A stretch of 64,000 nt of DNA from an uncultured virus (IMG/VR IMGVR_UViG_3300022700_000241) (Duplodnaviria > Heunggongvirae > Uroviricota > Caudoviricetes). Positions within the stretch are counted from its first letter, which is position 1. Each line of letters opens with the position of its first letter. The stretch lies in the IMG/VR virus record IMGVR_UViG_3300022700_000241, one strand, 5' to 3'. Positions 7,591 to 34,070 of this stretch are shown here, piece after piece. Position numbers and translations under genes: made by a program. The notes under the pieces were generated by a model. The model ran no database searches. It was not told the DNA's origin and worked only from the letters and a program-made list of their open reading frames with translations.

Positions 7591-8769
7591 CTAATCAAAA
7601 GCCACTGATTCGGGACGACCTGCACGCTCCAGGTCGGGAATCTCTCGGTACTCCTGCCCGCGCAGCGTGTCGGTCCCGCGGTCCTTGCCCACGAAGTACA
7701 TCTTCGAGACCGAAACCGAGCCGCGGTCGATGGGCGCCTCCACGGTCGTGGCTTCCGCCTCGCGTGCCACCTCCGCCCTCGGCTCCGGGATGTTGGAGAT
7801 GGGCTTCCAGGCGCCCCACTGCTTGAAGAAGAACGGCACGGAGACGCGCTTGCAGTGGTCACGGATCGTGCAAAACCAGTCGGGGTGCGGAGCGCGGGCG
7901 TTTGGGCCGCTCTCTCCGCCCGCAATTACCCAGTCGAGCGCGCGCACCTCCCCATCGATCCCGGCGCCCGGGAAATACAGCCCGTCGTCCTTCGAGGTCG
8001 AAAGCGCGTTGAAGTGCCACTCCTCACCGGTGTTGGAATCGATAGTCTCGACGTTGGTGAGGTCGACCGGACCGATGATCGGCTCTACGCTTACGAAGCG
8101 GACGCAGCCCGGACACGAGAGGAGCGTAGGGATTCGCTCGTTCGCGGCGTCCTGGTCCTCGGCGCTCACCCCGAGCCATGCGTTTTCCGGTGGCCATGCC
8201 TTATCGTAGGTCCGGATCTCTCGGGTGCGCGTATCCGCCCAGCTTTCGTTGATCTGGTGCTCCGGCTCGATAAGCGCCTCCATGTGCTCGGACACGCGGA
8301 TCGGCGTGCCATTATCGGTGAGGTAGTCCCGCATTTCTCCAGGACGCTTCGTCAAGATGAGGAACCGGTGCGTCGGCGCCAGGGCAATGGCCGCGAACGT
8401 ACGGTGGATGATCTCCCGCGGGACCTCCTCGTGGAAAAGGTCGGTCATGGAGTTGACGAAGGCGCATCGCGGTTTCTGCCATCGGATCGGCTGGTCGGCA
8501 TTCCGAACCTCGAACCGAATTTCCGAGAGGTTCTGGTGCTTGTACTCGTGGCCGGTGCCGAACTTGCCCGCCATGCCCTCTACGTTGAGCTTCTCGGCGT
8601 AGCAGTTGCGGCACCCCTCCGACACATGCGTACAGAACCAGCCGCGGTCGCCAGTCTGCTTATCGACGGCCACGAGTGGATTCCACGTGACCCCTCGGTA
8701 TCCAGGGTGGTGTGTCCACTCGATGCCCGTGTCGTGGGTAGATTCGGTGTCGATGGTCGCTTTGCTCAT
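7591..8769 (-). CDS. phage Gp37/Gp68 (DUF5131) radical-SAM-like protein
   Basis: TGIEWT...WNP...CTHVSEGCRNCYAE...FVNSMTDLFH...LTKRP...WLGVSAEDQ...SVEP...WVIAGGESG...FFFKQWG. Confidence 0.92.
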   Translation of the reverse strand: MSKATIDTESTHDTGIEWTHHPGYRGVTWNPLVAVDKQTGDRGWFCTHVSEGCRNCYAEKLNVEGMAGKFGTGHEYKHQNLSEIRFEVRNADQPIRWQKPRCAFVNSMTDLFHEEVPREIIHRTFAAIALAPTHRFLILTKRPGEMRDYLTDNGTPIRVSEHMEALIEPEHQINESWADTRTREIRTYDKAWPPENAWLGVSAEDQDAANERIPTLLSCPGCVRFVSVEPIIGPVDLTNVETIDSNTGEEWHFNALSTSKDDGLYFPGAGIDGEVRALDWVIAGGESGPNARAPHPDWFCTIRDHCKRVSVPFFFKQWGAWKPISNIPEPRAEVAREAEATTVEAPIDRGSVSVSKMYFVGKDRGTDTLRGQEYREIPDLERAGRPESVAFD

Positions 8770-8781
8770 AGGCTCGGGGTC

Positions 8782-9687
8782 TCAATCGAAAAGGGTCAGT
8801 TCCTCTCGTTCAAGTAGGAAGATCATCCGGTCTATCATCTCCGGGTCGGGCGGCTCTATGACGCCTGGGGCAGTTGGGTAAAGGGGAAGGCTCCTCCAGG
8901 TCTCGCCGATTAGCATGTCGTGAACCGTTTGGAAGGCGTCGACCGGCCCTTCCTCCTGGAGGTCCTCGCATGTGAGGCCCTCGTTTTTCCAGTACCGCCG
9001 ACGATGACGCAGCACGAGGGCGGGAGTGTACTTCGGGTCTCCGTCCCACTTGTGCGAGCGCCCCTTCCGGGACATATCGTCCATGTTCTCTTTCGCGGTC
9101 CCGAGCCAGAGGTGGTCCGGGTTGACGCACTTGCGATTGTCGCAGGAGTGGAGGATCTGGAGCCCGAACGTCGGAATGCTGTAGTGCCGGTGGAAGCTGT
9201 GGTGGTGAGCCCGCGGGGCGTCGACGCCGGTGTTGACGCCGTACCCGTAGTAGGTATCTCCCTCCCACTCCCAGCACCCATCGTCGGGCATCGGGCCAAC
9301 CATTTGCCAGAACGGCGTGGTGTAGTCTACGCAACTGGAGCGCCAGGACACCTCAAGCCCCCGGCGCAGGAACTCCGCCCGCACCGAGAGCAGGTTCGTG
9401 AGGTACTGTTCGGCAATCTCCGGCGGCGTTCGGTCCGAGAGGTCCTCCATGTGCCTGCACCACTGGATCGAGGCTTCGAGATCGTTTTTCCCGGGGACCT
9501 GTCGCCCGCACGCCAGAAGCTCGGCGACTACATTATCGTATGGCACGCCCAGCGCCCGCGCGATCCCGACCGGGGGCGTCCCACTGGACCCCTCCCGCCC
9601 GTGAAAAGCATCGAGGATGATCTTGCGCCGGTGCTCAAGAGGTGTCGGTGCAAGAGACTCCGGAATCGCCTCGTCTGTAGGGATCAT
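8782..9687 (-). CDS. HNH homing endonuclease
   Basis: CWEWEG...YG...AHHHSF...LHSCDNRKCVNPDHLWLGTAKENM. Confidence 0.9.
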   Translation of the reverse strand: MIPTDEAIPESLAPTPLEHRRKIILDAFHGREGSSGTPPVGIARALGVPYDNVVAELLACGRQVPGKNDLEASIQWCRHMEDLSDRTPPEIAEQYLTNLLSVRAEFLRRGLEVSWRSSCVDYTTPFWQMVGPMPDDGCWEWEGDTYYGYGVNTGVDAPRAHHHSFHRHYSIPTFGLQILHSCDNRKCVNPDHLWLGTAKENMDDMSRKGRSHKWDGDPKYTPALVLRHRRRYWKNEGLTCEDLQEEGPVDAFQTVHDMLIGETWRSLPLYPTAPGVIEPPDPEMIDRMIFLLEREELTLFD

Positions 9688-9835
9688 GACGGTGCAGCAC
9701 GTGTCAGCGTTTATGTGCTCTTCTCTTAAAGGGCTTATAAGATATGGTTCCGAGGCGGTTGCAGATCAATGGCCCGGCGCATGTATTAAAGGGTGATGAC
9801 TGCCTCCGACACTCAAGCGAACCTCCCACAATCCC

Positions 9836-10498
9836 ATGAGCAGAAAAGCTCCCGTCACGCGACGCACGCCCCAGCGCCCCAGTGGCCTCGGTCGCCCCCA
9901 GTCCAACGGCCTTGCCCGCACCGGTCTCGGCGAACCCGCCGCCGGGAACGTCAAGCGGTGGAAGGCCCCGTTCCAGAAGTCCGGCTCGGTCAACATCTCG
10001 CAGGACCGCGTAGGGTTTTTGACCGACCCCGAAGGGCCGGGACGCACGAACTTCCAGGTCACACCCGGGGACGTTGTTCGGGCGCGGGTCACCGTGTCCA
10101 CGTCCGGCAACATCAAAACCCGCCTCATGCTGACTCCCTCGAAGGGGGACGGCCCGATTTACGAGAAAGGCGTCGTAACCCAGTGGGTACAGGGCCAAAA
10201 CATTCCGCTCCAGGCCGAACTGACGGTCCCGGACGGAATGAGTTGGATGAGCGTTGCTCTGGACCAACCCAACTGGACGCCCGGGGAAGTGCCTTCGGAC
10301 GCCGACTACCCCTTTGAATTTACCGAGGGGCAGCAGACGGGCACGATCTCGTGGAAGAACGCGAAGATCACGGTCAACCGACCGCTCGGCCAGGGCGGCG
10401 GTGGTGGAACGATGCTCGGCGGCTTCTCCACGACCGACGCCTTGATTGCCGGTGGGGCGCTGGTCGGCGCCACGGTGCTCTTCGTGAGCATCAATTAA
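9836..10498 (+). CDS. GLG-leader / C-terminal-anchor family protein (beta-rich domain)
   Basis: Basic leader with GLG/GLA/GLGE, beta-rich body, GGGGG linker, terminal hydrophobic helix ALIAGGALVGATVLFVSIN. Confidence 0.8.
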   Translation: MSRKAPVTRRTPQRPSGLGRPQSNGLARTGLGEPAAGNVKRWKAPFQKSGSVNISQDRVGFLTDPEGPGRTNFQVTPGDVVRARVTVSTSGNIKTRLMLTPSKGDGPIYEKGVVTQWVQGQNIPLQAELTVPDGMSWMSVALDQPNWTPGEVPSDADYPFEFTEGQQTGTISWKNAKITVNRPLGQGGGGGTMLGGFSTTDALIAGGALVGATVLFVSIN

Positions 10499-10502
10499 CC
10501 GG

Positions 10503-11012
10503 TCACAGGCGGCGAAGGCCTTGGGGAACGACGCGCTCGGCGCGCTCTCCTGCCGCGCGGGCGATCTCCATGTAGGTCTCCTCGGGGAGGCGATCTTTGG
10601 CCTCCTCGACGAAGAACTGCTTCCACGAGAGCGAGTCAATCTTCCGCAGGGCCTCCTCAAAAGAGCCCTCGGGGATGTTGCCCGGCTCGGCAGTCGGTTG
10701 GTCGGGGCTCGTGCCGCGGGACTGGAGCATCTGGATGTACTGGATGTTGCGCCCCATCGCTTTCTTCGCGTACTGGGCGCTGTTGAACCAGTCCTGGTCG
10801 GCGTACTCTCCGTCTTTGGCCGCCTTCTGCCGAGCCTCGTTAAGCTGGGCCTCGATGGAGTCAATGCGCTCCTGGAGGCGGATCTTCATCTCTTGGAGTT
10901 GTTCGGGGTTCATCTTGCGGAGCCGCCGCTTCTGCTCCTCTCTTTCCATGTCCCCAAACCGGTCGACGAACGCTTCGGTAATTCTCTGGTCGGTTTCCGC
11001 GTCGCTACTCAT
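10503..11012 (-). CDS. hypothetical coiled-coil protein
   Basis: Heptad-rich ORF, converges on the 9836 gene. Confidence 0.7.
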   Translation of the reverse strand: MSSDAETDQRITEAFVDRFGDMEREEQKRRLRKMNPEQLQEMKIRLQERIDSIEAQLNEARQKAAKDGEYADQDWFNSAQYAKKAMGRNIQYIQMLQSRGTSPDQPTAEPGNIPEGSFEEALRKIDSLSWKQFFVEEAKDRLPEETYMEIARAAGERAERVVPQGLRRL

Positions 11013-11945: not shown

Positions 11946-12836
11946 ATGTCCAGCCCAACACGGCGCCTCCAGAAGAAGAGAAGCGGCCTCGGCCAACTCC
12001 CGTGGGAGAACGGTGGTGGCCCGCCCCACGAGCCTGTTCTGGCCCAGGTGTGGAAGCACGCCAACTTCCAGGGCAACACGCTCAAGATGAGTGCCCCCGA
12101 GACGGGGAAGGCGACGTTCAACTACGACGACCTCTCCAACGAGGGCCTTCACGACCAAATCTCCTCGATACGGGTACAACCCGGCACGAAGGTCTCCCTG
12201 TTTAAGCACGTCGAGGGCGGGGAGCCCCAGCCCGCGAAATGGGACGTGATTGCCGAGGGTGGCATCAAGGAAATCGCCAACTTCAAAAACAGCCGCATCC
12301 CCAACGACGAAATCTCGGCCATCACCGTCGAGCGGCTCGCGCCCACAGACGGAGGCGGCGGAAACGGCAGCGGCGGGAACGGCGGAGGAGGGAACGGTGG
12401 CGGGAACGGCGGAGGAGGGAACGGCTCGTCGGGCGGCACGAGCGCCCCGACGGCTCCCTCACAGGGGCTCGTCGTTACCCGTGTAAGCTCAAGCGGGGTC
12501 GTGGTCCGAACTCCGGAAGCCTTCCAGGTTGGCGTAGAGTTTCCGTCCGGCTCGCAGGTCGCCCTCGCAACGCCGCAGGGCGGGGTTGCGCAGTTTACGA
12601 TCCAGACGGTCCAGCCCGCCGAAAGTGGGAAGACCCTCATTGTCACCAGTCCTCCGCCGGGGAGCGCGGCCCAGCAAGCGCTCCAGTCGAGCGCGCCGGT
12701 TCGGCTTTTTCCGATGTCGGGCCAAGGCGGCGGAGGCGGAGGAGGACAGTTCATCAAGGGCGTCCCGAACACCGCCCTTGCCATCGGCGGATTCGCGGTG
12801 GTCGGCAGTATGCTCTTCGTCGTCGCCAGCCAGTAG
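11946..12836 (+). CDS. GLG-leader / C-anchor family protein with beta/gamma-crystallin domain
   Basis: MSSPTRRLQKKRSGLGQ leader; WKHANFQG, HDQISSIRV, NDEISAI Greek-key motifs; GGN linker; FIKGVPNTALAIGGFAVVGSMLFVV anchor. Confidence 0.85.
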   Translation: MSSPTRRLQKKRSGLGQLPWENGGGPPHEPVLAQVWKHANFQGNTLKMSAPETGKATFNYDDLSNEGLHDQISSIRVQPGTKVSLFKHVEGGEPQPAKWDVIAEGGIKEIANFKNSRIPNDEISAITVERLAPTDGGGGNGSGGNGGGGNGGGNGGGGNGSSGGTSAPTAPSQGLVVTRVSSSGVVVRTPEAFQVGVEFPSGSQVALATPQGGVAQFTIQTVQPAESGKTLIVTSPPPGSAAQQALQSSAPVRLFPMSGQGGGGGGGQFIKGVPNTALAIGGFAVVGSMLFVVASQ

Positions 12837-12852
12837 GGATCGGCCACACGTC

Positions 12853-13551
12853 GTGAAAAGGTACGTGCAGTTCTCATTCCAGAGCGGCGCCCGAAAGAAC
12901 ACCTACGAGCGCGTCCGAAAGGCAACACGACTCGAACGCCTCCCCGGCATTCATCCGGTCTCGAACCTCTGGGCCGAGGCAGTCCGCGAGTACGTCAGCG
13001 GGGCAGGCCAACAGGTCGGAGGCGACTCGCGGTTCTTCAACAACATCGTGAAGAACGACTTCGGGAATATCGTCAACGAGGGAGGCACCGACAAGTGGGT
13101 AATCGTCCCCATGCTGTCGGAGGCAGACCTTCGACCAATACGGGAGGCAGTTCGAGAAAAGATGCCGTTCCTCCTGGCCGAAAACGACGTAACCCTCGAC
13201 GAGCCGATTCCCGAGCGGGGGATTGAGGACACGAAAACCCTCGCGGACTGGATGGTCGAGTTCTTCTCTTCGGGCATTGAGGTCGTTTCCGAGCGCCAGT
13301 CCCCGGTCAAAAATGGACAGAGGCTCACCGAGGAGCTTCCCATTAGCGGAGAGCCCTGGCGCGCGCTCATCGCAGAAGTGGGGCAGTGGGGCAAAAGCCC
13401 GAGGGGTCTCACCGAGAGAGCGGGGAGCGGAGGCGGCTTTGCTCCGCCGACTGGAGGTCAACGGAAAGCCGCGGGACTGGGAGCGAACACGTTTATCATC
13501 GGGAGCGCGGCCCTGGCCGCGTCCATAATCATCATCGGATCAAGCACGTAG
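12853..13551 (+). CDS. C-anchor family protein, paralog of 21754-22734
   Basis: GTG start 16 nt after upstream stop; DKWVIVP, LADW, EVGQWG shared with the 21754 protein; terminal TM helix. Confidence 0.75.
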   Translation: MKRYVQFSFQSGARKNTYERVRKATRLERLPGIHPVSNLWAEAVREYVSGAGQQVGGDSRFFNNIVKNDFGNIVNEGGTDKWVIVPMLSEADLRPIREAVREKMPFLLAENDVTLDEPIPERGIEDTKTLADWMVEFFSSGIEVVSERQSPVKNGQRLTEELPISGEPWRALIAEVGQWGKSPRGLTERAGSGGGFAPPTGGQRKAAGLGANTFIIGSAALAASIIIIGSST

Positions 13552-13555
13552 CGCC

Positions 13556-13780
13556 ATGCTAAACTCTCTTCTCGCACCGATCTTCAAGGGCCTCCGAGGG
13601 CTTCTCGTCATCATTCTCTGGGGTGGCATACTCATCTACATCGACCAGAGCTACCCCACGCTCCTGGACGGATGGTACTGGAGCATCGGTCTCTACGGAA
13701 TGTTCTTGGTCCTGGCCCTCACGTGGCTTTACTACGGAACCGGCCAGCACCTCAAGCCCGACCCCAACAGCGACGGGTGA
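13556..13780 (+). CDS. small two-TM membrane protein
   Basis: Two hydrophobic helices; ATG 4 nt after upstream stop. Confidence 0.7.
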   Translation: MLNSLLAPIFKGLRGLLVIILWGGILIYIDQSYPTLLDGWYWSIGLYGMFLVLALTWLYYGTGQHLKPDPNSDG

Positions 13781-13783
13781 GCC

Positions 13784-16393
13784 CTATTCGGGCACGTAGC
13801 TCCCGCTGGTCGTAAGGCGGATCTCATCAATCCGGATCCCGCCCTCACGCATCCGGAAGAGGAGCAACCCGGGGCCGGTCTCGGCCACCTCAATGGTCAT
13901 GGGGCCTTGCTCGGTGACGCCGAAGCTGGAGCCGCCGGTGTTTACCCAAACCCACTCGCCGGTCTGCGCCTCTGCTAAGTCGCCGTGTGCGTCGGAGTAG
14001 ATGTCGTTGTAGCTGTGCCACGTGTCGGTGGGGTCCCGGACGTGAAACGAATTGTCCGCTCCTGCGCCGCCGCTGTGAGCCACTCGGAGCCAAAGGTAAT
14101 GCGGCCCGGTCGCGCAGAAGTCAACCGGCACGTCGAACAGTGCCGCCCCTGTCGTTTGGGGGAACGGCTGACCCTCTGGGCTCTCGGGAAGGGCAAGCGC
14201 GTAGCCGTTCCCGGTGGCCGTCGAGGTATCACGGCGAACCCAATTGGTGTCGCCGTAGGCGTACTTGCGCGCCCGAGCGGCGTCAATCTCCACGAGGTTG
14301 CTCGGGTCTTCTAAGTTGCAGTTCTGGAGCGCCTCGTCTCCGTCGCTGTACGGGTACGTCGTCGTGACGCCGATGGTGAGGCTCCCAGTCTCGACCGTAT
14401 CGTCTGGGTAGTCCGGCTTCTCGACCGAAAGGGTATCGACGGAAAAGAACACGTCGTCGTTGTAGCCGCCCTCATCGCAAATCTCAATGTCGACCTGCTC
14501 GCACGGCTCGAACACCGGCCACATCGAATAGGCCACATCTTCCGACCGGTCGTAAATCTCGAAGGAGAAGTCCTCCCCTTCGTACATCCCCGGCTGTTCG
14601 GGAAGCCCCAGGGTCGAGTCGAGCTTGGCGGCGACCGCCAGAGTGAAGATGCCGCCGGACGAAACCGGGATGTGACCCACGCAATTCCCCCTCGGACTCA
14701 CCGCCGCAACCGTATCATCCTCGGCGAGGGGCTCGCCACTGGGAAAGCTGTAGTCATAGGGCGCGTTGACCGTCGCATTATCCACGTTCGTCGCGCAGTC
14801 TTCCGAGTAGACGAACGAGGGGTCTCCTCCGGTCACGGGCTCCTCTTCAACCACCTGCGACGAGTCCGAGACTGTCGCCCCCGCCGAGTCAATGGCCGTA
14901 ATGAGGATCTGGTAGGTGTCCCCGCTCCCGTCCTCGTCGGCGGACACGAAGCGAAACGGCTCGCCGGGGTTGTTCGAGGCGGATTGCCCGTCGCCCCACT
15001 GCTCGGCGGGAAAAGTCGCCTCATCCCGGGTCTGCCCGGTCGTGAGGTTGCGAAGCTCGAACTGGAGGGAGTCGAGGTTGCCATTCGGGTCAGAGGCGCC
15101 CCAGGTCACATCGAAATGCGCGTTGTCGCTCGGGTGCGCCGCCGTGTCGATAGACACCGAGTCAACGGCAGGGGCGAAGTTCTCCTCCTCAAACTCTTCG
15201 ACCACCTGCGCCGAGTCGGCATCGGTGAGGCCTTCGGTATCGTACACCGTTAGGCGGATCTCGTAGGTGTCCCCACTACCATCTTCTCCCTCGGCAGTAA
15301 AGCGGAACGGGTTGCCGGGGTTGTTCGAGGCTTCACTGCCATCGCCCCAGTTGAGGGGGTCGAAGCCGATGCTCTTTTTCCGCTCCCCCTGGCTCACATT
15401 CCAAAGCTCGAAGTGGAGACTGTCGAGGTTCGCGTTCTCGTCGCTTACGCCCCACCTCACGTCGAAATGAGCAGCGTTGTTTGGGCTGGAGGCTGTATCT
15501 ATCGAGATTGAATCGACCACCGGGGCGACGTTCTCCTCCACAAACTCCTCGGTCACCTGGGCGGAGTCGCTGGCCGAAAGCCCCGTCTCGTCGTAGGCCG
15601 TGAACTGGATCTGGTAGGTATCCCCGCTCCCGTCCTCCCCCGGAGCCACGAACCGAAAGGGGGAGCCCGGGTCGTTTGACGCTTCCGACCCGTCGCCCCA
15701 GGCCAGCGCGTCGTAGGTCGACTCGTCCACGACCGCTCCAGTCGTGAGATTGCGAAGCTCGAAGTGGAGGCTATCGAGGTCCCCGTCCGGGTCAGAAGCG
15801 CTCCAGTACACGTCGAACTCCGCGTCGACGGAGGGCGTGTCGGCAGTATCAATAGAGAGCCCCCCGACCGAGGGTGCGATTGGATCCTCATCGGTCGTGT
15901 CCTCCGGCGGGGGCATTGGGAGAGGCACCCCCTCCCCGAGGAGCCCGAGGTTGCGAAGACAGGTGACCTTCGATTGAAGCGTGGCGTATTCGGTCGAGTC
16001 CTCCATTGCCTGCCGGGGGAGGTCGCGAACGTCGTCGAGCACGTCGTCGACTGCAAACGGCTCGCTGACCGCAGGACACTTGGCCTCGTCGACTTTCTCA
16101 ACGGTCTCGTACCAGAAGCCGGTCGTGTCCCCGGGAGCGACGCGGCGCACGATGTCTTTGCCTGCGCAGGCGATTCCGTCTCCGTCCCTGTCGAGGCCAA
16201 ACGGATCTGCCGTGGAGTCCTGCACGAGCCACTGCACGGCAACGTACGTGCCTTGCGCCTCAAGGATGGAATCGAAGTCCGAGCAGTTCTTGTCGGCGAT
16301 GGTCGTGTCGATGTCGACGGTGATCTGCGCCGCCGCGACCATCGGAAGCAACATGCCAAGAACTACAAGAAATGCTACTCTCTTGGCCCACAT
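13784..16393 (-). CDS. large secreted acidic protein: signal peptide, Excalibur Ca-binding domain, three Ig-like repeats, C-terminal CBM-like domain
   Basis: MWAKR+hydrophobic+AAA-Q signal; DKNCSDF...DPFGLDRDGDGIAC; three ~117-aa repeats FDVxWxxSDxxxxLDSLxFELxN; terminal YLWLRV...DNSFHV...MREGGIRIDEIRLT. Confidence 0.85.
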   Translation of the reverse strand: MWAKRVAFLVVLGMLLPMVAAAQITVDIDTTIADKNCSDFDSILEAQGTYVAVQWLVQDSTADPFGLDRDGDGIACAGKDIVRRVAPGDTTGFWYETVEKVDEAKCPAVSEPFAVDDVLDDVRDLPRQAMEDSTEYATLQSKVTCLRNLGLLGEGVPLPMPPPEDTTDEDPIAPSVGGLSIDTADTPSVDAEFDVYWSASDPDGDLDSLHFELRNLTTGAVVDESTYDALAWGDGSEASNDPGSPFRFVAPGEDGSGDTYQIQFTAYDETGLSASDSAQVTEEFVEENVAPVVDSISIDTASSPNNAAHFDVRWGVSDENANLDSLHFELWNVSQGERKKSIGFDPLNWGDGSEASNNPGNPFRFTAEGEDGSGDTYEIRLTVYDTEGLTDADSAQVVEEFEEENFAPAVDSVSIDTAAHPSDNAHFDVTWGASDPNGNLDSLQFELRNLTTGQTRDEATFPAEQWGDGQSASNNPGEPFRFVSADEDGSGDTYQILITAIDSAGATVSDSSQVVEEEPVTGGDPSFVYSEDCATNVDNATVNAPYDYSFPSGEPLAEDDTVAAVSPRGNCVGHIPVSSGGIFTLAVAAKLDSTLGLPEQPGMYEGEDFSFEIYDRSEDVAYSMWPVFEPCEQVDIEICDEGGYNDDVFFSVDTLSVEKPDYPDDTVETGSLTIGVTTTYPYSDGDEALQNCNLEDPSNLVEIDAARARKYAYGDTNWVRRDTSTATGNGYALALPESPEGQPFPQTTGAALFDVPVDFCATGPHYLWLRVAHSGGAGADNSFHVRDPTDTWHSYNDIYSDAHGDLAEAQTGEWVWVNTGGSSFGVTEQGPMTIEVAETGPGLLLFRMREGGIRIDEIRLTTSGSYVPE

Positions 16394-16582: not shown

Positions 16583-17578
16583 CTACGTTGCAAACCCGAG
16601 GGCGCCAGACTGTGATTGTCCAGAAAAAAGCTGTCGGTCGTTCATCTCCAGGTGCCTTGAGGCCTCCAGGAGGATCATCTGCCGAAGAGGTTCGGTCGGG
16701 GCAGACTCCGCGGCGGCTACGATTTCTCGCTCTACGGTCGCTTCCGGCTCATAGTCGCCGCTTTCGGCAGCCCTCGTCAGGAGCTTCCCGAGCCCGATGT
16801 GCTGTTTCTCAAGCCACCATCGAAGACCGTCCAGGCCCTCCTCCCGGGCATACTCGTGGGGGTCGAGGCCATCGGGTAAAATCGCGGCACGGGGCACAAG
16901 GCCCGACGCAATCGCCCGCTTCATGCCCCGAATGGTGGAGGTGACCCCAGCCTCGTCAGGGTCGTAGGCAAAGACGACCTTCGAGGCTCGATTCGAGAGC
17001 ATCCCTACCTGCGTGCGCGTGAGGGCCGTCCCGCTGGACGCCACGACGTTGATGAGCCCCTCGGACTGGAGCGTAATCACGTCCGTGTACCCCTCGGTGA
17101 TAACGGCAGTACCGGTCTTCTCGATAGCTGAACCGGCCCGCCACATGCCGTAAAGATACCGGTCTTTGTCGTAGTGGTCGGTGGCCGGGGAGTTGATGTA
17201 CTTCGGCCCTTCCTCCTCATTGGAGAGAAGGCGCCCGGCAAACCCCAGGGGCTTTTCCTCCTCCGAGTAGAGAGGGAAGATGAGCCGATTCCGAAAGCGG
17301 TCGTAGTGGCCGGAGGATTGGCGCGGCTTGACCAGTCCCGCCTCGACGAGCGTGCTCGCGGAGAAGCCCCGCCTACGGGCCGCGATGAGAAGAGCGTCCC
17401 ACGAGTCCGGCGCCCAGCCCAGTCCATACTCGTCGGCGACTCCTCTCCCATAACCGCGCTCCCCGAGGTACTGGACGGCTTTTTGCCCAGCATCGGTTTC
17501 GGTTAAATGGTAGTGGAAGAACCTCTCGGCAAAAGAGAGGGACTCATCTGTCGTGTCCGCCCAGTTTGACTCGGCCAT
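16583..17578 (-). CDS. dnaG: bacterial-type DNA primase catalytic core (TOPRIM) lacking the N-terminal zinc-binding domain
   Basis: YLGERG, DRFRNRLIFP, GFAGR, PKYINSP, EGYTDV, SSGTAL, YDPDEAG, DPHEY; start at MAESNW just after upstream stop. Confidence 0.9.
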   Translation of the reverse strand: MAESNWADTTDESLSFAERFFHYHLTETDAGQKAVQYLGERGYGRGVADEYGLGWAPDSWDALLIAARRRGFSASTLVEAGLVKPRQSSGHYDRFRNRLIFPLYSEEEKPLGFAGRLLSNEEEGPKYINSPATDHYDKDRYLYGMWRAGSAIEKTGTAVITEGYTDVITLQSEGLINVVASSGTALTRTQVGMLSNRASKVVFAYDPDEAGVTSTIRGMKRAIASGLVPRAAILPDGLDPHEYAREEGLDGLRWWLEKQHIGLGKLLTRAAESGDYEPEATVEREIVAAAESAPTEPLRQMILLEASRHLEMNDRQLFSGQSQSGALGFAT

Positions 17579-17580
17579 CG

Positions 17581-18258
17581 TTATGCGTCCTGTGGATTGA
17601 AGTCCCCATCGTAGCGCTCCTCGAAGAGATCCTCCATGCCCTTCGCGGTTGAAAGTCCGATTCCGGCGGCCCCTCTGTGTTGGTGCTTCTCCAACGCTCG
17701 GGCAACTTGCTGGACCGTAGAACAATGAGACTGAACGACCCACCGGGCCGCCGGGACCCCGCGGGAGACCTTGCCGGAGCGCATCGCGTAGGCGGCGACC
17801 GAGGACGGGTCCTTCGGGCTCAGTGGCCCGACCACCGGCACGTCGTGAGGCGTGAACTGAACCGGCGCCTCGGCCCCGCAGATGGGGCAGGCGCGGACCA
17901 TCACAAGATCCTCGCAGAAGTCAAACCAGAACCGACCGTCTCCGGACTCGACGCAGAGAACGTGCGTGGCGTCCTTGTTGGAGAACACCACCGGCGTCTC
18001 TCGGTCCTCCCGGCGCTCCCACTTGCAGAAGTGCCGACGGTCTATCGAGCCGTGATGCACGTGCTGCTCGCTTTCGGTGGAGGCCTCCGCCGGGCTCAAG
18101 TGGGCGTGCGTCGGGCAAAACAGGGCCGTCCCGTCGACGGACGCCTTTCCCACCCAAGGGGTCCGGTCCAGTAGAAACTCGGCGGCTTCCTCCTGGTCGA
18201 GGCCGGGCACGATGATCGTGTCCTCACACTCGGTACAGGTAAAGACAAAGCGGTCCAT
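17581..18258 (-). CDS. multi-Cys putative zinc-binding protein
   Basis: CTEC, CPTH, CPIC motifs; stop 2 nt before primase start. Confidence 0.65.
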   Translation of the reverse strand: MDRFVFTCTECEDTIIVPGLDQEEAAEFLLDRTPWVGKASVDGTALFCPTHAHLSPAEASTESEQHVHHGSIDRRHFCKWERREDRETPVVFSNKDATHVLCVESGDGRFWFDFCEDLVMVRACPICGAEAPVQFTPHDVPVVGPLSPKDPSSVAAYAMRSGKVSRGVPAARWVVQSHCSTVQQVARALEKHQHRGAAGIGLSTAKGMEDLFEERYDGDFNPQDA

Positions 18259-19420: not shown

Positions 19421-19493
19421 GCGTACTCGAACCTTCCCCCGCCAATCCCATAAGCGTGTGTGAACCGACCTCTCACGTGCCTACGCCGATGCC

Positions 19494-20288
19494 ATGCGCC
19501 GCTCTACGCACCTCCTCAAGCAGAACGCCAAGATCAAGCCCACCTCCGAAGTGCCCGACGGGATGAGCCAGTCCTTTGGCTTTGGCCCCAGCTTTGGCGG
19601 TGGGGGTGGGTTCAACTTCGGGTCCGGAGGCGGCTTCAACTTTGGCTCCGGGGGTGGCTTCAACTTTGGCTCTGGGGGCGGGGGCTTCAACTTCGGGTCC
19701 GGCGGGGGCGGGTTTAACTTCGGGCAGGGCGGCGGCTTCAACTTTGGCCAGAACAACTTCGGCTTCAACCAGGGCTTCGACTTCCAGCAGCAACAGCAGC
19801 AGTTCGGGTTTAACCCCGGAGGGCTGTTCGACCAGTCCGGCCAGTTCTCCTTCAACCCGAGCTTCCAGGTCGAGTCGCTCAACCAGAGCGCCTTTGGCGC
19901 GCAGTCCCCGTTTGGGGCCGGTGCCCCGCTCGCCTCCAGTGATAGCCCCAACCAGGGGGACGTGCCCGAATTTGGCGACTGGAAGGAGTTTGTGGCCTTC
20001 CTTTTTCGGAACGGCCCAGCCTGGGTGAAGGCGTTTAAGGAGGGCCGCATCTCCCCCCGCGGCGGCGCCTCGCGAAACGCTCCGTCGAGCAACCGGCGGG
20101 AGATCATCCAGCGCTACATGGCCCAACGCTCCCAGCAAATGAACCAGGGCGGCATCGGGGGTGGCGTCGGCGGATTCCTCACGTCAACAACCGGAATGCT
20201 CGTGATCGGCGGCGTGCTGTTTGGGGGAATCCTGCTTGCCGCTACGGCAGGCGGAAGCCAACGGCGCGTGGTTCGTCGCCGACGCTAA
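19494..20288 (+). CDS. FxFG-repeat low-complexity membrane-anchored protein (GLG-leader family)
   Basis: Basic leader ending GMSQ; six GFNFG units; Q/N/F-rich region; TM helix then RRVVRRRR. Confidence 0.85.
   Translation: MRRSTHLLKQNAKIKPTSEVPDGMSQSFGFGPSFGGGGGFNFGSGGGFNFGSGGGFNFGSGGGGFNFGSGGGGFNFGQGGGFNFGQNNFGFNQGFDFQQQQQQFGFNPGGLFDQSGQFSFNPSFQVESLNQSAFGAQSPFGAGAPLASSDSPNQGDVPEFGDWKEFVAFLFRNGPAWVKAFKEGRISPRGGASRNAPSSNRREIIQRYMAQRSQQMNQGGIGGGVGGFLTSTTGMLVIGGVLFGGILLAATAGGSQRRVVRRRR
19608..19749 (+). repeat. tandem coding repeat (GFNFGSGG) x6
   Basis: Units such as GGCTTCAACTTTGGCTCCGGGGGT with synonymous variation between copies. Confidence 0.9.
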
Positions 20289-20312: not shown

Positions 20313-21731
20313 ATGAAGCCGACTGCACGACTCGACCGTATCTCAACGCCAAGCCGATCCCCAACCGCTACAGGGCTCGGCCAGTCAACCTACGAGCTTT
20401 GGCACTACCACGACACGAAGGCGGCCAACGATGAGGCAATCTCAAGCACCGAGATTACCAACGCCTCCAACTACGTCCAGGCGAACACACAGTACCTCAA
20501 TGCCGTCGCCGAAAATGTCGTCGAGGTCGTGAACAACAACGGCGGCAACGCGCACCTCGAAGAGCGAGCCGTCGACCCCGGGAACCCTCCCTTTCTGCCG
20601 TACAAGGTGGCCGTCGTCGAATCTCCTGCCCCACGCTCGGACGTGGACTCTCTCATCTCCCAGATGATCGAGCAGGCGAAGCAAAAGGAGTACGACGTGC
20701 TCAACCAGAACGCGATGGAGGTTTTCTTCGAGAAGATCAAGAGCACGAAGACACAGCCTGTTGCGGAGGGCACCTGGGAGAATATGTATAACCCGAGGCC
20801 CCCATACGTCTACCCCAGCCCCACGCCGGTCGTCCAGTGGAAACAGGTGTCCGGGGAGCCCTCCGGCGAAAATGGAGGGGGCGACCCGAATGAGGATGGG
20901 GGCGGCTCTATGCCGAGCGTCGGCACCTTCGTGGTTCAGTCCGTGGAGGGCGGGCGGCTTATCGCCCGGGAGCAGTCTCCTCCCTCACAGCAGTTCAAGG
21001 ATCTTGGCGGCACAGTCCGGGTGACCGTTCTTCCGGATGACATCCAGATCGACCCGATTGACGACCCCATCGACGACCCGGTTTTTGACCCGCCAGACGA
21101 CGGGAACGGGGACGACGACGGCCCCGACGGGCCAACACCGATCCTGCAAGGCCTCTCTCAAGTGAGGTCTCGAAAGCCAACGATGCGGCTGCCCTCTCGG
21201 AGAAAATCGCAATCGCGCCCGCAGCGACGTGCCACTTCGGGGATAAGTGCAGGACTCGGACAGGGGAGCGTCAGCACGCACATGCTGACCGTGCCCGGCG
21301 GGTCAAACAACCTACGCTACCGGCCCGACGGACGGGTCGAGGTGAAGATCGTAGAGCCGATCCCTCAACCGGTCAAAGACGCCACCCGGCAAGGCGGTAC
21401 GGTTACGATGGTGGTCGAATCGGTCGGCTCCTCAAACGGCGGGGACAACGGTGATAATGGCGACAACGGTGATAATGGGGGCAACGGGAACGGGGATAAC
21501 GGCGGGGATGGCAATGGCGGAAACGGAGGGAATGGGGGCGGAAATGGCGGAAACGGAGGCGGCGGAAATGGAGGGGGCGGTGGAAACGGAGACGGCGGCA
21601 CTGGAACGGTCGTCGGCGGTCGCCAACCGACGGGCCAGCAGGCCGGAATCGTTCCGGGCGTCTCCAACGCCACGCTCGTGATCGGGGCCGCCGGGGTCCT
21701 CTCGCTAACAGTTATTGCAGCCTCAAGCTGA
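20313..21731 (+). CDS. GLG-leader / C-anchor family protein, multidomain, with internal second leader
   Basis: MKPTARL...TGLGQ leader; internal GLSQ and GLGQ; NGD/GGN linker; IVPGVSNATLVIGAAGVLSLTVIAASS anchor. Confidence 0.85.
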   Translation: MKPTARLDRISTPSRSPTATGLGQSTYELWHYHDTKAANDEAISSTEITNASNYVQANTQYLNAVAENVVEVVNNNGGNAHLEERAVDPGNPPFLPYKVAVVESPAPRSDVDSLISQMIEQAKQKEYDVLNQNAMEVFFEKIKSTKTQPVAEGTWENMYNPRPPYVYPSPTPVVQWKQVSGEPSGENGGGDPNEDGGGSMPSVGTFVVQSVEGGRLIAREQSPPSQQFKDLGGTVRVTVLPDDIQIDPIDDPIDDPVFDPPDDGNGDDDGPDGPTPILQGLSQVRSRKPTMRLPSRRKSQSRPQRRATSGISAGLGQGSVSTHMLTVPGGSNNLRYRPDGRVEVKIVEPIPQPVKDATRQGGTVTMVVESVGSSNGGDNGDNGDNGDNGGNGNGDNGGDGNGGNGGNGGGNGGNGGGGNGGGGGNGDGGTGTVVGGRQPTGQQAGIVPGVSNATLVIGAAGVLSLTVIAASS

Positions 21732-21753: not shown

Positions 21754-22734
21754 ATGACCCCCACGGCCAGAATACAAGGCCCAAAGTCCACCGCCTCGGG
21801 GCTTGGGTTGGGAGCCCTTTCCGAGTCAACAAAGCAGTGGATCCACTGGGACTTCACGAAGGTCAACCAGGACGAGTACGACAAAATGAAGGACATGACC
21901 GTCCCAGAGGGCGCGGTCTCCAGCACCCTTCCCCCATCGGACAAGATCACAGGCGTCGTCGCCGACGCGACCGCAGAGTTCATGCGCCAGAACCAGATAA
22001 GCCATACCATCAAGAGCCGCCAGCTTCAATGGTCCGCATTGGGGAAAACCGCCACGGTCAATGACAAGTGGGTGCAGGTCCCACAGATGAACCAGAGCGT
22101 TTTCGATACGATCTTGGAGGCGGTGAAGCCCAAGGTGAAAGAGGCCATCTTGAACCAGACGGAGATCGGCACAATCGACTTCGGGGACCACACCGATATA
22201 GTCGGGCTTGAAACCCCGCTACAGGATCTCGCAGACTTCTACTGGGAGTGGTGGCTTGAGGGGATTAACAGGAGCGGCACAAAGCTCCCAGCGAAAGCCA
22301 GCGGCTTTGACCGCGGGATCCAGCGGTATCTCATGATTGAGGTAGACAACTGGGGCGAATCTGGAGGAGGGGGCGGGGGTGGAGGTAGCGCAAACCTCGT
22401 TCGCGTTCGCATCAAGGCGGCAAGCCGCGGTGCGGTTGAGGCCCTAAAGTTGCAGTACATCCGGTCCGCTGGAGGGCAAACAGTCCGGTCAGAGGGACCC
22501 TTGACAATCATCGCAGACGTGCCTGCCGGTTCGGTTTCTTCGTTTCAAGACTTTAGCGGGGTCCGTTCCGTTACGCCACTGAACCAGGGCGGCGGCGGAA
22601 GTGGTGGGGGAGGTGGAGGCTGGGGAGGTGGAGGGTCCCGAGAGGCTGGAATCATTCGGGGCGTCTCGAACAGTACACTTGTAATCGGGGCCGCAGGCCT
22701 CCTCTCAATTACGCTCGTTGCTGCCTCTTCCTAA
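21754..22734 (+). CDS. GLG-leader / C-anchor family protein
   Basis: MTPTARI...SGLGLG leader; two poly-G linkers; IIRGVSNSTLVIGAAGLLSITLVAASS anchor. Confidence 0.85.
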   Translation: MTPTARIQGPKSTASGLGLGALSESTKQWIHWDFTKVNQDEYDKMKDMTVPEGAVSSTLPPSDKITGVVADATAEFMRQNQISHTIKSRQLQWSALGKTATVNDKWVQVPQMNQSVFDTILEAVKPKVKEAILNQTEIGTIDFGDHTDIVGLETPLQDLADFYWEWWLEGINRSGTKLPAKASGFDRGIQRYLMIEVDNWGESGGGGGGGGSANLVRVRIKAASRGAVEALKLQYIRSAGGQTVRSEGPLTIIADVPAGSVSSFQDFSGVRSVTPLNQGGGGSGGGGGGWGGGGSREAGIIRGVSNSTLVIGAAGLLSITLVAASS

Positions 22735-22746
22735 ACCTCGACTCCG

Positions 22747-23340
22747 ATGAAGCCGACAAGAAAGATTTCCGGCCATTCAACGTCTCGTGACGCCAACGGG
22801 CTCTCGCAGGCAAACACCTCGAAATACCCAGTGATGGAGATTTCTCCATCTGGGGGCGGGGCAAAGCTCACGCTCGAAACCTTCGAGTTCGTAGACCCGC
22901 TGTTCTCGGAATGGAGCCCCTCTAACGGGGGCCAGATTTCGATTGCCGTCGAGGGGCAACAGCCCGTCGTCCTTCCTGTCGAGGCGTCATCTGGGGCGAT
23001 CACAGGCCCCCTTGGAAACGGGATGACGGAGGTGATCGTCACGAAGCCAGTACCGCAGGGAATCCAATCTGCCGTAGGGGCACAGAACGTGATCGTAATG
23101 CCTGGGAAGGTCCAGGGAGCCGTTCCCCCATCGGAGTTCGGCACCTCCAACGGAGGGAGCGGTGGTGGAGGGAATGGAGGCGGAAATGGCGGGAGTGGTG
23201 GCGGCGGTGGCGGGGGCTTCCCTCCCGGCGGCTCCACCGGCGTTCAACGGTCAGAGATCATCCCCGGCGTCTCCAATACTGCCCTCGTCATTGCCGCCGG
23301 TACGCTTACGACCGCCACAATTTTGGCCGCAGCAAATTAG
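22747..23340 (+). CDS. GLG-leader / C-anchor family protein
   Basis: MKPTRKI...NGLSQ leader; poly-G linker; IIPGVSNTALVIAAGTLTTATILAAAN anchor. Confidence 0.85.
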   Translation: MKPTRKISGHSTSRDANGLSQANTSKYPVMEISPSGGGAKLTLETFEFVDPLFSEWSPSNGGQISIAVEGQQPVVLPVEASSGAITGPLGNGMTEVIVTKPVPQGIQSAVGAQNVIVMPGKVQGAVPPSEFGTSNGGSGGGGNGGGNGGSGGGGGGGFPPGGSTGVQRSEIIPGVSNTALVIAAGTLTTATILAAAN

Positions 23341-23741
23341 GGGTCGTATCCGCCAGAGCGCTCAAAGGAGAGGCTGTAGCGCTTGTCGCTGTCCTCCGTC
23401 GGTCCGACCGATCCGGTTACCGACCCGTTGTCGTTCACCTCGTAGAGGAATTTGCGCGCCTGCTGGATGGACTTCGGCGGACCCTCTCTGCGTAGCGCCC
23501 GCTCTCGCTGTTTGCCAGAAAGCTCGTCCCACCCCTTGATTTCTCGGCTTCCGAAGTCCGGGACCTTCGAGTCGTGACGGACGATCCAGAATCGCTCGTC
23601 GGTCCCGGCGCCAATTAGGTGCAGGCCTTTCCCGGGCATCCATAGGCTCCGCTCATACGCGCGGCCCAACCAGAACGAAAGAATGGCCCCGGCCACGAAA
23701 ACGACCGAGAACAGAAGGAAGGTTTGAGAGATCAGTTCCAT
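23337..23741 (-). CDS. hypothetical protein with N-terminal TM helix
   Basis: FLLFSVVFVAGAILSFWLG; stop overlaps the convergent plus-strand stop. Confidence 0.65.
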   Translation of the reverse strand: MELISQTFLLFSVVFVAGAILSFWLGRAYERSLWMPGKGLHLIGAGTDERFWIVRHDSKVPDFGSREIKGWDELSGKQRERALRREGPPKSIQQARKFLYEVNDNGSVTGSVGPTEDSDKRYSLSFERSGGYDP

Positions 23742-32193: not shown

Positions 32194-32220
32194 TGGATTA
32201 AGGGGTTTTTCCTTGGTATC

Positions 32221-32435: not shown

Positions 32436-34070
32436 TTAGGCGTCCGCGGCGTTGTCGATGATCGTTTGCGCCTGCTTCTGCGAGAGCCCGATGGCCTCGG
32501 CAAGCTCCTCGGCGCTTGCGCTGGCCACGTCCGAGGCCGACTGGTACCCGGCCTCCCGAAGCGATTCTGAGCGCGCTGGGCCGACGCCGGTGATGGCTTC
32601 GAGGTCGACGGCTTCGGGCGCGGGATCCTCCTCTTGGGCGGACTCCTCGCCGCCCTTGTCGGCATCCCCATCGTCGATTTCCACGCTGGGAAACTCATCG
32701 ATGAGTGCCTCCGAGAGCGTTTTGTCAGCACCGACCCGCCGCACGTCACCGATCCACTGCCCGTAGTCCGCGGCGGGCTCGATCACCTCGAAGTAGAGGG
32801 GCGAGGGCTCTCCGTCCTCCCCGAAGAGGTAGTCTTCGGTAAATGCCTTGTGCTTGAGGCCCTCCTCTCGCTCTTCGGACCCGTCCTCGACGAAGAAAAT
32901 CTCTGCGGTATCGACGCCGACGACCTGCATTCGGACGTGTTGTTCGGCCATAAAGCCAAGGTCGACGATGAGGTCCACGGTGTCCCCATCAATGACATCT
33001 TCCGCTCTTGCGAGATACGTGTTGAATGTCGCCTCCTCAAGGGTTGGTGGGGACGGATTCTCGTCTTCGGTTCCCGGCTCCTCTCGTGGAGGTTCATCGT
33101 CTGGAGGCGGCCCATCACTGTCGGGTGGTTCCTCCTCATCGCCGGGGGGCTCCTCGCTGTCTGGGGGCTCTTCTTCCTCCGGTGGGCCAACAAACAGGTC
33201 CCCCGGGAGCTTGAGGATCCCCGCCCCGTCGCGCGGGGTCCCATCGATGTCATCGGCCCCGTCGATGAGGCGCTGGTCCCAATCGGACCGCTCGGCGGCC
33301 AGGGCCGTCGCGTAGGCCGCGCTGGCCAAGGGAGCGGCAAACGAGGTGCCGCTTCCCTTTACGAAGTCGGCATCGACCACCCCGCCCATCTTTGTGCCCG
33401 GTGCCCGAGCCATTTTGACGTTCACCCCAACCGTGGCGATGTCCGGGTTGCCCTGGTCCGGGTCGAAGCTCGAAAATCGAGCCGGAGCGCCCTCTTCCGT
33501 GAGCGCCCCCGCAGAGAACGCGAGTCCGCTCGTAGCGGGGGATCCCCCATCGGTCCCAGTATTGCCCGCGGCAACCACGTCATTGACTCCCGCCTGGACG
33601 AGCCGCTCGTGAAGCTGGTTGATTTGCATCACGTTGCGCCGCGCGCCCCAGGACATATTTACGATGTCGATGTCCCCGGCATTTTTGATGAGCCACTCGT
33701 AGGCGCGGCGAATGACAGAGAAGCCCGTGCGCGTCTCCGACCCGAAAATGCGAACGTCGAGAAGCTCGACGTTGGGCGCCATCCGGGAAATGAGGCTGGC
33801 GACGCCTGTGCCGTGACCAACCTTATCCCCCCGACCGCTTCCGCCAGAGGCATCGTAGTTGCCGATCACTTCCGTTCCCTCAAACCACGGGTGCTGGGCC
33901 ACGGCGTCGGGATGTATGCCCGAATCCATGACCGCGACGGTCACCGGGTCAGTGTCCGGCCAATCGTCGGGCCAGTTGTGAAGGGCGGCGATTTCTTCCG
34001 GGAGCGCAAGGTCCTCCTCGCTCGCAGAAATGAGGTCGGGGTCGGTACGGTCGCGAAGGTCAACGTCCAT
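32436..34070 (-). CDS. S8 subtilase fused to degenerate thermonuclease (SNase) domain and C-terminal helix-hairpin-helix domain
   Basis: VAVMDSGI, GHGTGVAS, AAGN, GSGTSFAAP; Pro/Glu linker; VIDGDT...GVDTAE; DLEAITGVGPARSESLREAGY...LAEAIGLSQKQAQTII. Confidence 0.9.
   Translation of the reverse strand: MDVDLRDRTDPDLISASEEDLALPEEIAALHNWPDDWPDTDPVTVAVMDSGIHPDAVAQHPWFEGTEVIGNYDASGGSGRGDKVGHGTGVASLISRMAPNVELLDVRIFGSETRTGFSVIRRAYEWLIKNAGDIDIVNMSWGARRNVMQINQLHERLVQAGVNDVVAAGNTGTDGGSPATSGLAFSAGALTEEGAPARFSSFDPDQGNPDIATVGVNVKMARAPGTKMGGVVDADFVKGSGTSFAAPLASAAYATALAAERSDWDQRLIDGADDIDGTPRDGAGILKLPGDLFVGPPEEEEPPDSEEPPGDEEEPPDSDGPPPDDEPPREEPGTEDENPSPPTLEEATFNTYLARAEDVIDGDTVDLIVDLGFMAEQHVRMQVVGVDTAEIFFVEDGSEEREEGLKHKAFTEDYLFGEDGEPSPLYFEVIEPAADYGQWIGDVRRVGADKTLSEALIDEFPSVEIDDGDADKGGEESAQEEDPAPEAVDLEAITGVGPARSESLREAGYQSASDVASASAEELAEAIGLSQKQAQTIIDNAADA

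Follow-up and report, generated by a model that had tools for sequence, protein, structure and literature searches.

Cohesive disordered domains rich in aromatic residues and glycine are known mainly from eukaryotes, where they occur in nuclear pores, prion-like domains and elastomers. In the FG (Phe-Gly) nucleoporins of the Nup98 and Nsp1 types, the aromatic residues are sparse and are separated by long polar spacers. Abductin and the glycine-loop proteins are extracellular structural proteins of animals. In this study, we analyzed the FG protein, which is encoded on the plus strand by the open reading frame (ORF) 19494–20288 of a 64-kb stretch of DNA from an uncultured virus (IMG/VR record IMGVR_UViG_3300022700_000241; hereafter the window). 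The FG protein is a predicted single-pass membrane protein and founds a small family that appears undescribed. A short N-terminal tag and a C-terminal anchor are also found on other proteins of the same phage, and this tag-and-anchor set, which likewise appears undescribed, is the most informative finding. The explanation we prefer, with less than even confidence, is that the FG protein is a membrane-fixed and probably oligomeric protein whose aromatic/glycine region acts as a cohesive multivalent domain, so that a dense membrane layer is formed together with the tagged paralogs.

The ORF encodes 264 amino acids (aa), with an ATG start and a TAA stop, and its product is divided into the modules listed in Table 1. 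The N-terminal 26 residues are basic. The following low-complexity region (residues 27–135) contains G37 F26 Q13 N12 S11 P3; the first-pass annotation had recognized this low-charge stretch correctly and put its length at about 95 residues, whereas it spans 109. The charges in the region are D96, D113 and E127 only. It has no Lys or Arg, and Cys is absent from the whole protein. Six exact GFNFG units and one GFDFQ were found, with 15 FG dipeptides and 7 FxFG motifs, and the aromatics are mostly spaced 2–7 residues apart. The six frames of the window were scanned (frames of at least 80 aa) for 60-aa stretches holding 6 or more aromatics, 12 or more Gly and no more than 4 charges. The FG ORF was the sole frame with such a stretch, which holds 16 aromatics. 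A test with 5000 shuffles showed that aromatic-x-aromatic is above composition in the region (11 vs 5.8 ± 1.8, p = 0.005) and that the FG dipeptide is not (11 vs 8.8 ± 2.1, p = 0.20). The repeat codons are mixed (Gly GGC 20, GGG 12, GGT 3, GGA 2; Phe TTC 17, TTT 9) in a degenerate array, in agreement with the synonymous variation noted earlier.

The AlphaFold2 model of the FG protein, built from 8 sequences, had a mean pLDDT (predicted local distance difference test) of 46. Residues 1–143 had a pLDDT of about 40 and no confident structure. A helical hairpin at residues 163–182 (helices 163–173 and 175–182) reached a pLDDT of about 79, and further helices were placed at residues 198–216 and 232–252. 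The Kyte-Doolittle hydropathy is 2.11 over residues 234–252. Over residues 1–60 it is at most 0, and there is no hydrophobic N-terminal segment. The sequence and the model thus bear out the ORF, the GFNFG units, the scarcity of charges, the small helical domain, the transmembrane helix and the Arg-rich tail that the first-pass annotation had listed, and they agree with its view of the protein as membrane-anchored.

The FG ORF is a real phage gene. Its GC content by codon position (0.60/0.51/0.82) is typical of the window genes. An antisense frame (19481–20107) has a GC content by position of 0.50/0.58/0.85 and uses the same wobble positions as the plus frame, so the GC content at third positions is no help in telling the strands apart. 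Three differences were found in the small share (0.18) that DNA run X1 contains as short contigs of low depth, all at third positions and synonymous in the plus frame; because the wobble positions are common to both frames, these do not discriminate the strands either. The plus strand was assigned because its frame is the longest, lies 24 nt ahead of the next plus-strand gene and has conserved features. Relatives down to 36% identity keep the tag, the hairpin, the membrane helix and the tail. The antisense product, a KLKPPP/Cys-run sequence, shows none of these features. That the ORF is no gene, its frame being held open by GC-rich repeats, or that the antisense frame is the true gene, is left undecided by the wobble positions and the X1 differences; it is extremely improbable given the longer plus frame, its fit to a plus-strand operon and the conservation of its modules.

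Two relatives of the FG protein were found by a word-indexed search. With the C-terminal 162 residues as the query, HMMER was run exhaustively against 1.84 billion representatives and gave six relatives (E 8.8e-85 to 1.4e-4). Cluster look-up added seven more, and the family comprises 15 sequences including the window protein. All 15 are metagenomic and are labelled at most "hypothetical protein". Searches of 185,579 species genomes (with the profile of alignment A3), IMG/VR, the JGI metagenome contigs and 50,697 phage records yielded no relative; the IMG/VR contigs were scanned with the FG protein, A3, the relative P0016 and the primase of the phage. The DNA of the four-gene block headed by the FG gene and the FG protein had no match in the phage records, nor had a 490-aa protein. 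The 20313 product gave just two low-complexity matches in viral contigs (L001 and L002), which were not used. Pfam (E ≤ 0.1 and E ≤ 10), PHROGs and NCBIfam (E ≤ 10) returned nothing for the FG protein and the three proteins downstream. The best ESM Atlas scores were 0.83–0.85, in clusters mostly of Uroviricota, which is below the level of more than a lead. Among the papers listed by full-text literature searches, none dealt with repeats of the FG type in phage proteins. Since neither the libraries nor the listed literature gave a match, both the family and the tag-and-anchor set seem to be undescribed.

One module order is common to the seven full-length representatives: tag, aromatic/Gly/Ser/Asn region, hairpin, Gly linker, helix and basic tail. 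The family tag is M[RQK][RK][SA]T[HN]L ... G[LM][GS], in which DG[ML][GS] is kept, and the family hairpin is W..F..L..GPAWV.AF..G. Residues W163, G174, P175, A180, F181 and G184 are invariant in the 8 sequences of alignment A2, and G239, G240, G244 and G245 of the membrane helix are invariant in A3. The hydropathy of the anchor is 1.66–2.36 in 14/14 members.

The low-complexity region is present in 7/7 representatives, with 60–110 residues, 17–26% aromatics, 0–3 Lys + Arg and 3–7 Asp + Glu; five of the seven have no adjacent aromatics. The shares of Gly (17–39%), Ser (6–32%) and Gln (1–13%) vary widely, with Q at 1–3% in 4/7, so the Q/N-rich character described by the first-pass annotation is not a family trait. 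Aromatic-Gly dipeptides are above composition in P0006 (p < 0.0002) and P0010 (p = 0.012) only, and aromatic-x-aromatic in the window protein and P0001 only. The aromatic positions are better kept than the spacers. Compared with the window protein, P0001 keeps 22/25 aromatics and 29/42 spacer residues, P0002 keeps 23/25 and 24/42, and P0006 keeps 18/25 and 14/42. The Phe pattern is therefore kept in the relatives, and its loss had been named earlier as an argument against the proposed role of the repeats. Of the conserved FG spacing that the earlier proposal asked for, the aromatic positions are found and the FxFG motif itself is not.

The repeat number is also not conserved. P0002 and P0013, which belong to one 90% cluster, differ by one repeat unit, and such differences between close relatives indicate that slippage or recombination acts on the array. 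The earlier claim of selection on the peptide in place of recent slippage thus stands in part: relatives at 36–42% identity keep an aromatic/Gly/Ser/Asn region almost without basic residues, and the array itself is not free of slippage or recombination. By the conservation pattern of the family, selection acts on aromatic density, aromatic spacing and the lack of basic charge, and not on a fixed FxFG motif. With a membrane-tied domain of this kind, maintained by selection on the spacing of its aromatics, the phage family offers a small, tractable system for the role of cohesive disordered domains in prokaryotic infection.

Like the FG nucleoporins, the FG protein has a disordered, low-charge region with repeated Phe-Gly, spacers of Gly, Ser, Asn and Gln, and an attached anchoring part. 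Unlike them, it shows no sequence homology to any nucleoporin (Pfam at E ≤ 10; the single match of a PDB profile search, E 0.53, is at chance level). The aromatics make up about 1 in 4–5 residues of the phage-family region, several-fold denser than in the FG nucleoporins. The region is 60–110 residues long and not hundreds, and the membrane helix that anchors it is part of the same protein. For this phage no pore scaffold or transport receptor is known, and no candidate receptor was recognized in the window. Judged by these comparisons, the FG protein resembles nuclear-pore FG domains in composition only, and the wider likeness drawn by the first-pass annotation, with its sieve or condensate, was not supported. 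A selective barrier, in which oligomerized helices line a membrane opening and a Phe-Gly mesh passes certain cargo only, would account for the 15 FG and 7 FxFG motifs in an uncharged disordered stretch, for the conserved aromatic pattern and for the conserved GGxxxGG of the anchor. We consider it very unlikely, as the homology is absent, the aromatic density is high, the FG motif is not above composition in 5/7 members, and no transport-receptor-like or compartment-building gene was recognized in the 64 kb. Just as doubtful is a broader scenario in which the phage would build or remodel a membrane-bounded structure in the infected cell. The FG protein would oligomerize by means of its Gly-zipper helix, its mesh would fill the opening so formed or coat a surface as a convergent counterpart, in a prokaryotic virus, of the nuclear-pore barrier, and the tag would direct at least seven membrane proteins along a new sorting route peculiar to the phage.

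The region also resembles abductin, the glycine-loop proteins and other elastomeric Gly/aromatic proteins in its short Gly-rich repeats with single Phe residues, its lack of charge and a probable disorder with elasticity or cohesion. It differs from abductin and the glycine-loop proteins in being the free end of a phage membrane protein, in containing Asn and Gln, and in having a conserved tag in front. By analogy, it may work like the known aromatic/glycine cohesive or elastic domains without being a member of any of those families. One such role is an elastic or entropic tether: the tag would bind a partner, the helix would hold the other end, and the region would simply bridge up to about 35 nm as a flexible spring or spacer comparable to abductin, much as the Gly stalks and beta domains would in the paralogs. 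The tag and anchor are the conserved ends common to the set members and the middle is variable, as expected of a tether, and the length of 60–110 residues with a repeat number differing among close relatives fits it as well. However, a mere spacer needs neither better-kept aromatics nor 17–26% aromatics in every member, and the paralogs tether with plain Gly/Asn/Asp stalks. We regard a tether as a somewhat unlikely explanation.

The FG gene is followed on the same strand by the genes starting at 20313, 21754 and 22747 (Table 1). Six further window ORFs carry the N-terminal tag and/or the C-terminal anchor, all on the plus strand and opposite most genes. The set-wide tag consists of two motifs, MKPTAR[IL] (motif A) and G[LM][GS]Q (motif B). 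The three products downstream of the FG gene end in a Gly-rich stalk, a GVSN motif and a hydrophobic helix, which extends almost to the C-terminus, up to the last one or two residues. The middles of the paralogs are beta-rich and unrelated to each other; the AlphaFold2 model of the 22747 product, built from 2 sequences, had a pLDDT of 33.6 and was unusable. Motif A is exact in the orthologs (MKPTAR[IL] in P0023 and P0024, MKPTRKI in P0012), and motif B and the anchor are also kept. The 8–15 residues between the two motifs change freely among orthologs.

Several observations were made on single members of the set. The 472-aa protein contains a second, internal tag copy, RSRKPTMRL...AGLGQ (21162–21250, plus strand), which suggests a fusion of two tagged modules. 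Residues 34–88 of the 11946–12836 product match the beta-gamma-crystallin spherulin 3a (PDB 1ag4/1hdf, E 1.6e-4), a match undetected by Pfam. The minus-strand ORF 9704–10864 has a flat GC content by position (0.64/0.64/0.61) and an isoelectric point (pI) of 11.7, and is probably a shadow of the plus-strand gene 9836–10498, whose values are 0.61/0.53/0.81. Two small ORFs, 13556–13780 (plus) and 23337–23741 (minus), flank the two tag-and-anchor blocks; each encodes one N-terminal hydrophobic helix, and they are possible further membrane partners. A shared promoter motif for the plus-strand blocks, TTWAAGRGG, was rejected (1 match vs 0.92 expected).

Table 1. Positions of the FG gene, its modules and the other members of the tag-and-anchor set in the window.
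Feature	Position	Strand	Basis
FG gene, 264 codons + stop; heads the four-gene plus-strand block	19494–20288	+	ORF list and sequence
N-terminal tag, residues 1–26: MRRSTHLL, variable spacer, DGMSQ	19494–19571	+	Family motifs; same layout in paralogs
Aromatic/glycine low-complexity region, residues 27–135	19572–19898	+	Composition, shuffles, family comparison, pLDDT ~40
Degenerate 24-bp tandem array encoding GFNFG units	19602–19748	+	Tandem Repeats Finder: 5.9 copies, 73% matches
Ser/Pro-rich segment and helical hairpin, residues 136–192	19899–20069	+	Alignment A2, AlphaFold2
Basic amphipathic helix, residues 198–216	20085–20141	+	AlphaFold2 secondary structure, low confidence
Predicted membrane helix with GGxxxGG, residues 228–254; conserved [FW][LI]xSxxG before the helix	20175–20255	+	Hydropathy, alignment A3, AlphaFold2
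Arg-rich C-terminal tail	20256–20285	+	6 Arg among the last 12 residues
472-aa gene: tag MKPTARL..GLGQ, Gly/Asn/Asp stalks, C-terminal anchor	20313–21731	+	Tag and anchor comparison
326-aa gene: tag MTPTARI...GLGLG, Gly stalk, C-terminal anchor	21754–22734	+	Orthologs P0023, P0024
197-aa gene: tag MKPTRKI...GLSQ, Gly stalk, C-terminal anchor	22747–23340	+	Ortholog P0012
Tag-and-anchor paralog, 220 aa, second plus-strand block	9836–10498	+	GC by position 0.61/0.53/0.81
Tag-and-anchor paralog, 296 aa, beta-gamma-crystallin-like segment	11946–12836	+	Tag, anchor, PDB match
Anchor-bearing paralog, 232 aa; tag-like RKATRL internal at residues 22–27	12853–13551	+	Anchor and tag comparison

From the tag shared by these proteins we infer one common recognition step for the whole set, which could be targeting, processing or turnover. 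That a single phage has at least seven proteins bearing tag and anchor points to a recognition or sorting step that is undescribed. Three leads may explain the tag. It may be a degron, as motif A resembles the N-motif-1 that is recognized by ClpX; it may be cut by the subtilase of the phage at the bond that follows the L/M of motif B; or it may have a capsid-targeting role as in the T4 internal proteins. For the first lead, PMC12723719 gives the lambda O tag as TNTAKILNFGR. Motif A (PTAR[IL]/PTRKI/PTRRL, residues 3–8) has the same N-terminal order of T, small, basic and aliphatic residues as the tag given there. This five-residue likeness is perhaps due to chance, the FG protein has STHLL at this position, and motif B has no counterpart.

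The membrane topology was examined from the charges that flank the helix. After the helix, 12/14 family members have a tail of 12–30 residues with 2–6 Lys/Arg, against 0–2 in the 15 residues before it. According to the positive-inside rule, the basic flank of a membrane helix lies on the cytoplasmic side. The Lys/Arg-rich tail would therefore be cytoplasmic, and the Phe-Gly region would lie outside the cytoplasm. The paralogs look tail-anchored because they have no tail beyond the helix and no clear charge bias. A hydrophobic N-terminal segment is absent from the FG protein and the six paralogs, whereas an 869-aa protein of the same phage has one.

The C-terminus of the FG protein was compared with two kinds of described signals. 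In 12/14 FG-family members it resembles the C-terminal sorting signals LPXTG, PEP-CTERM and PGF-CTERM, as the motif [FW][LI]xSxxG is followed by a helix and a basic cluster. Unlike proteins with these signals, the FG protein has no N-terminal signal peptide, and the paralogs have no basic cluster. No NCBIfam sorting-domain model matched the FG protein, even at E ≤ 10. The second comparison is with tail-anchored proteins that depend on the twin-arginine translocation (Tat) pathway, which according to PMC10924467 combine an N-terminal targeting sequence with a C-terminal anchor and a basic C-terminal side. The FG protein shares this layout and differs from the proteins treated there in that RR is restricted to the window protein and the relatives nearest to it (QK, QR, KR or KT elsewhere) and is not followed by an h-region. 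A Tat route for the FG protein is for this reason unlikely.

The contradiction between tail and N-terminus would be removed if the FG protein were carried in the virion and ejected. The tag would then serve capsid targeting or cleavage, the unfolded region would thread the tail, and the helix with the Arg tail would insert from outside, pulled by the membrane potential. An ejection protein would reconcile a C-in Arg tail with the absent signal peptide. Several different proteins of the phage share a short N-terminal tag, as several T4 internal proteins do. The phage also has a podophage-type virion protein (Gp80) and encodes an S8 subtilase, and motif B ends in L/M followed by G/S. However, the fibre genes are on the other strand, and the genes concerned adjoin the primase and lie outside the structural module; the window showed no capsid, portal or prohead protease gene; and the cleavage remains putative. 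We therefore judge ejection to be unlikely.

A small membrane protein for control of the envelope (holin/antiholin or superinfection exclusion), to which the low-complexity region would be appended for regulation or as a plug, was also considered. Helices with Gly-packing motifs and a highly basic C-terminal tail are typical of holins, and the single helix of the FG protein has both features. The two small membrane ORFs nearby (13556–13780 and 23337–23741) would fit such a function. This role is quite unlikely: neither in the block nor in the window as a whole did the library searches find an endolysin or spanin domain, a protein of 264 aa with a 230-residue extramembrane part is atypical, and no PHROG match to any lysis family was obtained. 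A holin in particular fits poorly given the size of the protein, the missing PHROG lysis family and the lack of a lysin domain in the block, despite the helix and basic tail. A unimolecular spanin was rejected since the FG protein has no Cys for a lipobox and no signal peptide.

In the membrane-layer explanation that we prefer, four parts would work together: a basic two-motif tag, a disordered aromatic/Gly region, a two-helix hairpin, and a GGxxxGG membrane helix with an Arg tail. The GGxxxGG helix would fix the FG protein in the membrane and probably drive its oligomerization. The aromatic/glycine region would be a multivalent cohesive domain that sticks to its own copies, resulting in a dense protein layer attached to the membrane. 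This layer would work with the presumably co-transcribed tagged and anchored paralogs, which bear beta-rich domains on Gly-rich stalks, and the shared tag would be read in one common recognition step. Several points weigh against this explanation. The low pLDDT of the model is weak evidence of disorder. The topology is contradictory, as the tail predicts an external N-terminus, yet there is no signal peptide while the 869-aa phage protein has one. The FG and paralog genes adjoin replication genes and not a recognizable structural or lysis module. The FG or FxFG motif exceeds composition in some members only. Finally, P0010 has just 60 residues of the region, which is further reduced or absent in P0018 (182 aa) and P0009 (94 aa, from a 1,001-bp contig); the family core may thus do without it.

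The window genes are mostly of no recognizable family and lie on the minus strand. A DnaG primase gene (16583–17743) was identified by its match to phrog_6444 (2.4e-66); its nearest phage matches show about 30% identity, and most belong to phages that infect Bacteroidota and Helicobacter. With Pfam, a Gp80 "podophage fibre I" protein was found (1.1e-22), and its tblastn matches fall in 19 records, 19/19 of which are tailed phages. Other recognizable genes encode a DUF5131 protein (phrog_2045), two HNH endonucleases, a PNK-phosphatase-like protein, a sulfotransferase and a 1158-aa LamG protein. The window proteins are recorded on a 135,993-bp contig, and a related contig of 127,878 bp carries orthologs of both the FG gene (P0001) and the 22747 gene (P0012). 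The primase, DUF5131, HNH and Gp80 matches and the 135,993-bp contig indicate that the element is probably a large tailed phage of at least 136 kb. By the primase, the PHROG matches and the tailed-phage matches of Gp80, the element looks viral, as the first-pass annotation had taken it to be. The median pI of 35 products is 5.0, and some proteins are very acidic; this is suggestive, not decisive, of the halophile assumed in that annotation.

The 869-aa protein (13784–16393, minus strand) is very acidic. Besides a signal peptide of the standard kind, it contains three internal repeats, each about 110 residues long, and the sequence DRDGDGIAC, which we take to be an Excalibur-like motif. Pfam gave a weak PKD-like match only. 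The DUF5131 protein (7591–8769, minus strand) has 392 aa and probably carries an insertion, because its match spans 365 residues against a profile of 243 positions. One HNH endonuclease gene (8782–9687) adjoins the DUF5131 gene and the other is located at 3673–4584. The minus-strand gene 32436–34070 encodes an unusual fusion, in which an acidic Pro/Glu linker joins an S8 subtilase to a nuclease-like part (phrog_452) and a helix-hairpin-helix domain forms the C-terminus. The minus-strand gene 40520–41356, which has the 1158-aa LamG fibre-like gene on one side and the Gp80-like gene on the other, encodes a sulfotransferase domain of eukaryote type (Sulfotransfer_1, 4.7e-28). A 20-base element, ATCGATGCACTTATTAAACG, was found in 7 copies (at most 3 mismatches) against 0 expected in shuffles, at 32218, 49874, 53069, 54887, 57165, 58463 and 61935 (plus-strand coordinates). 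It always has one orientation, lies directly upstream of minus-strand genes and is often preceded by GGTTTTTGG. This element is probably a phage-specific promoter with a 5′ leader.

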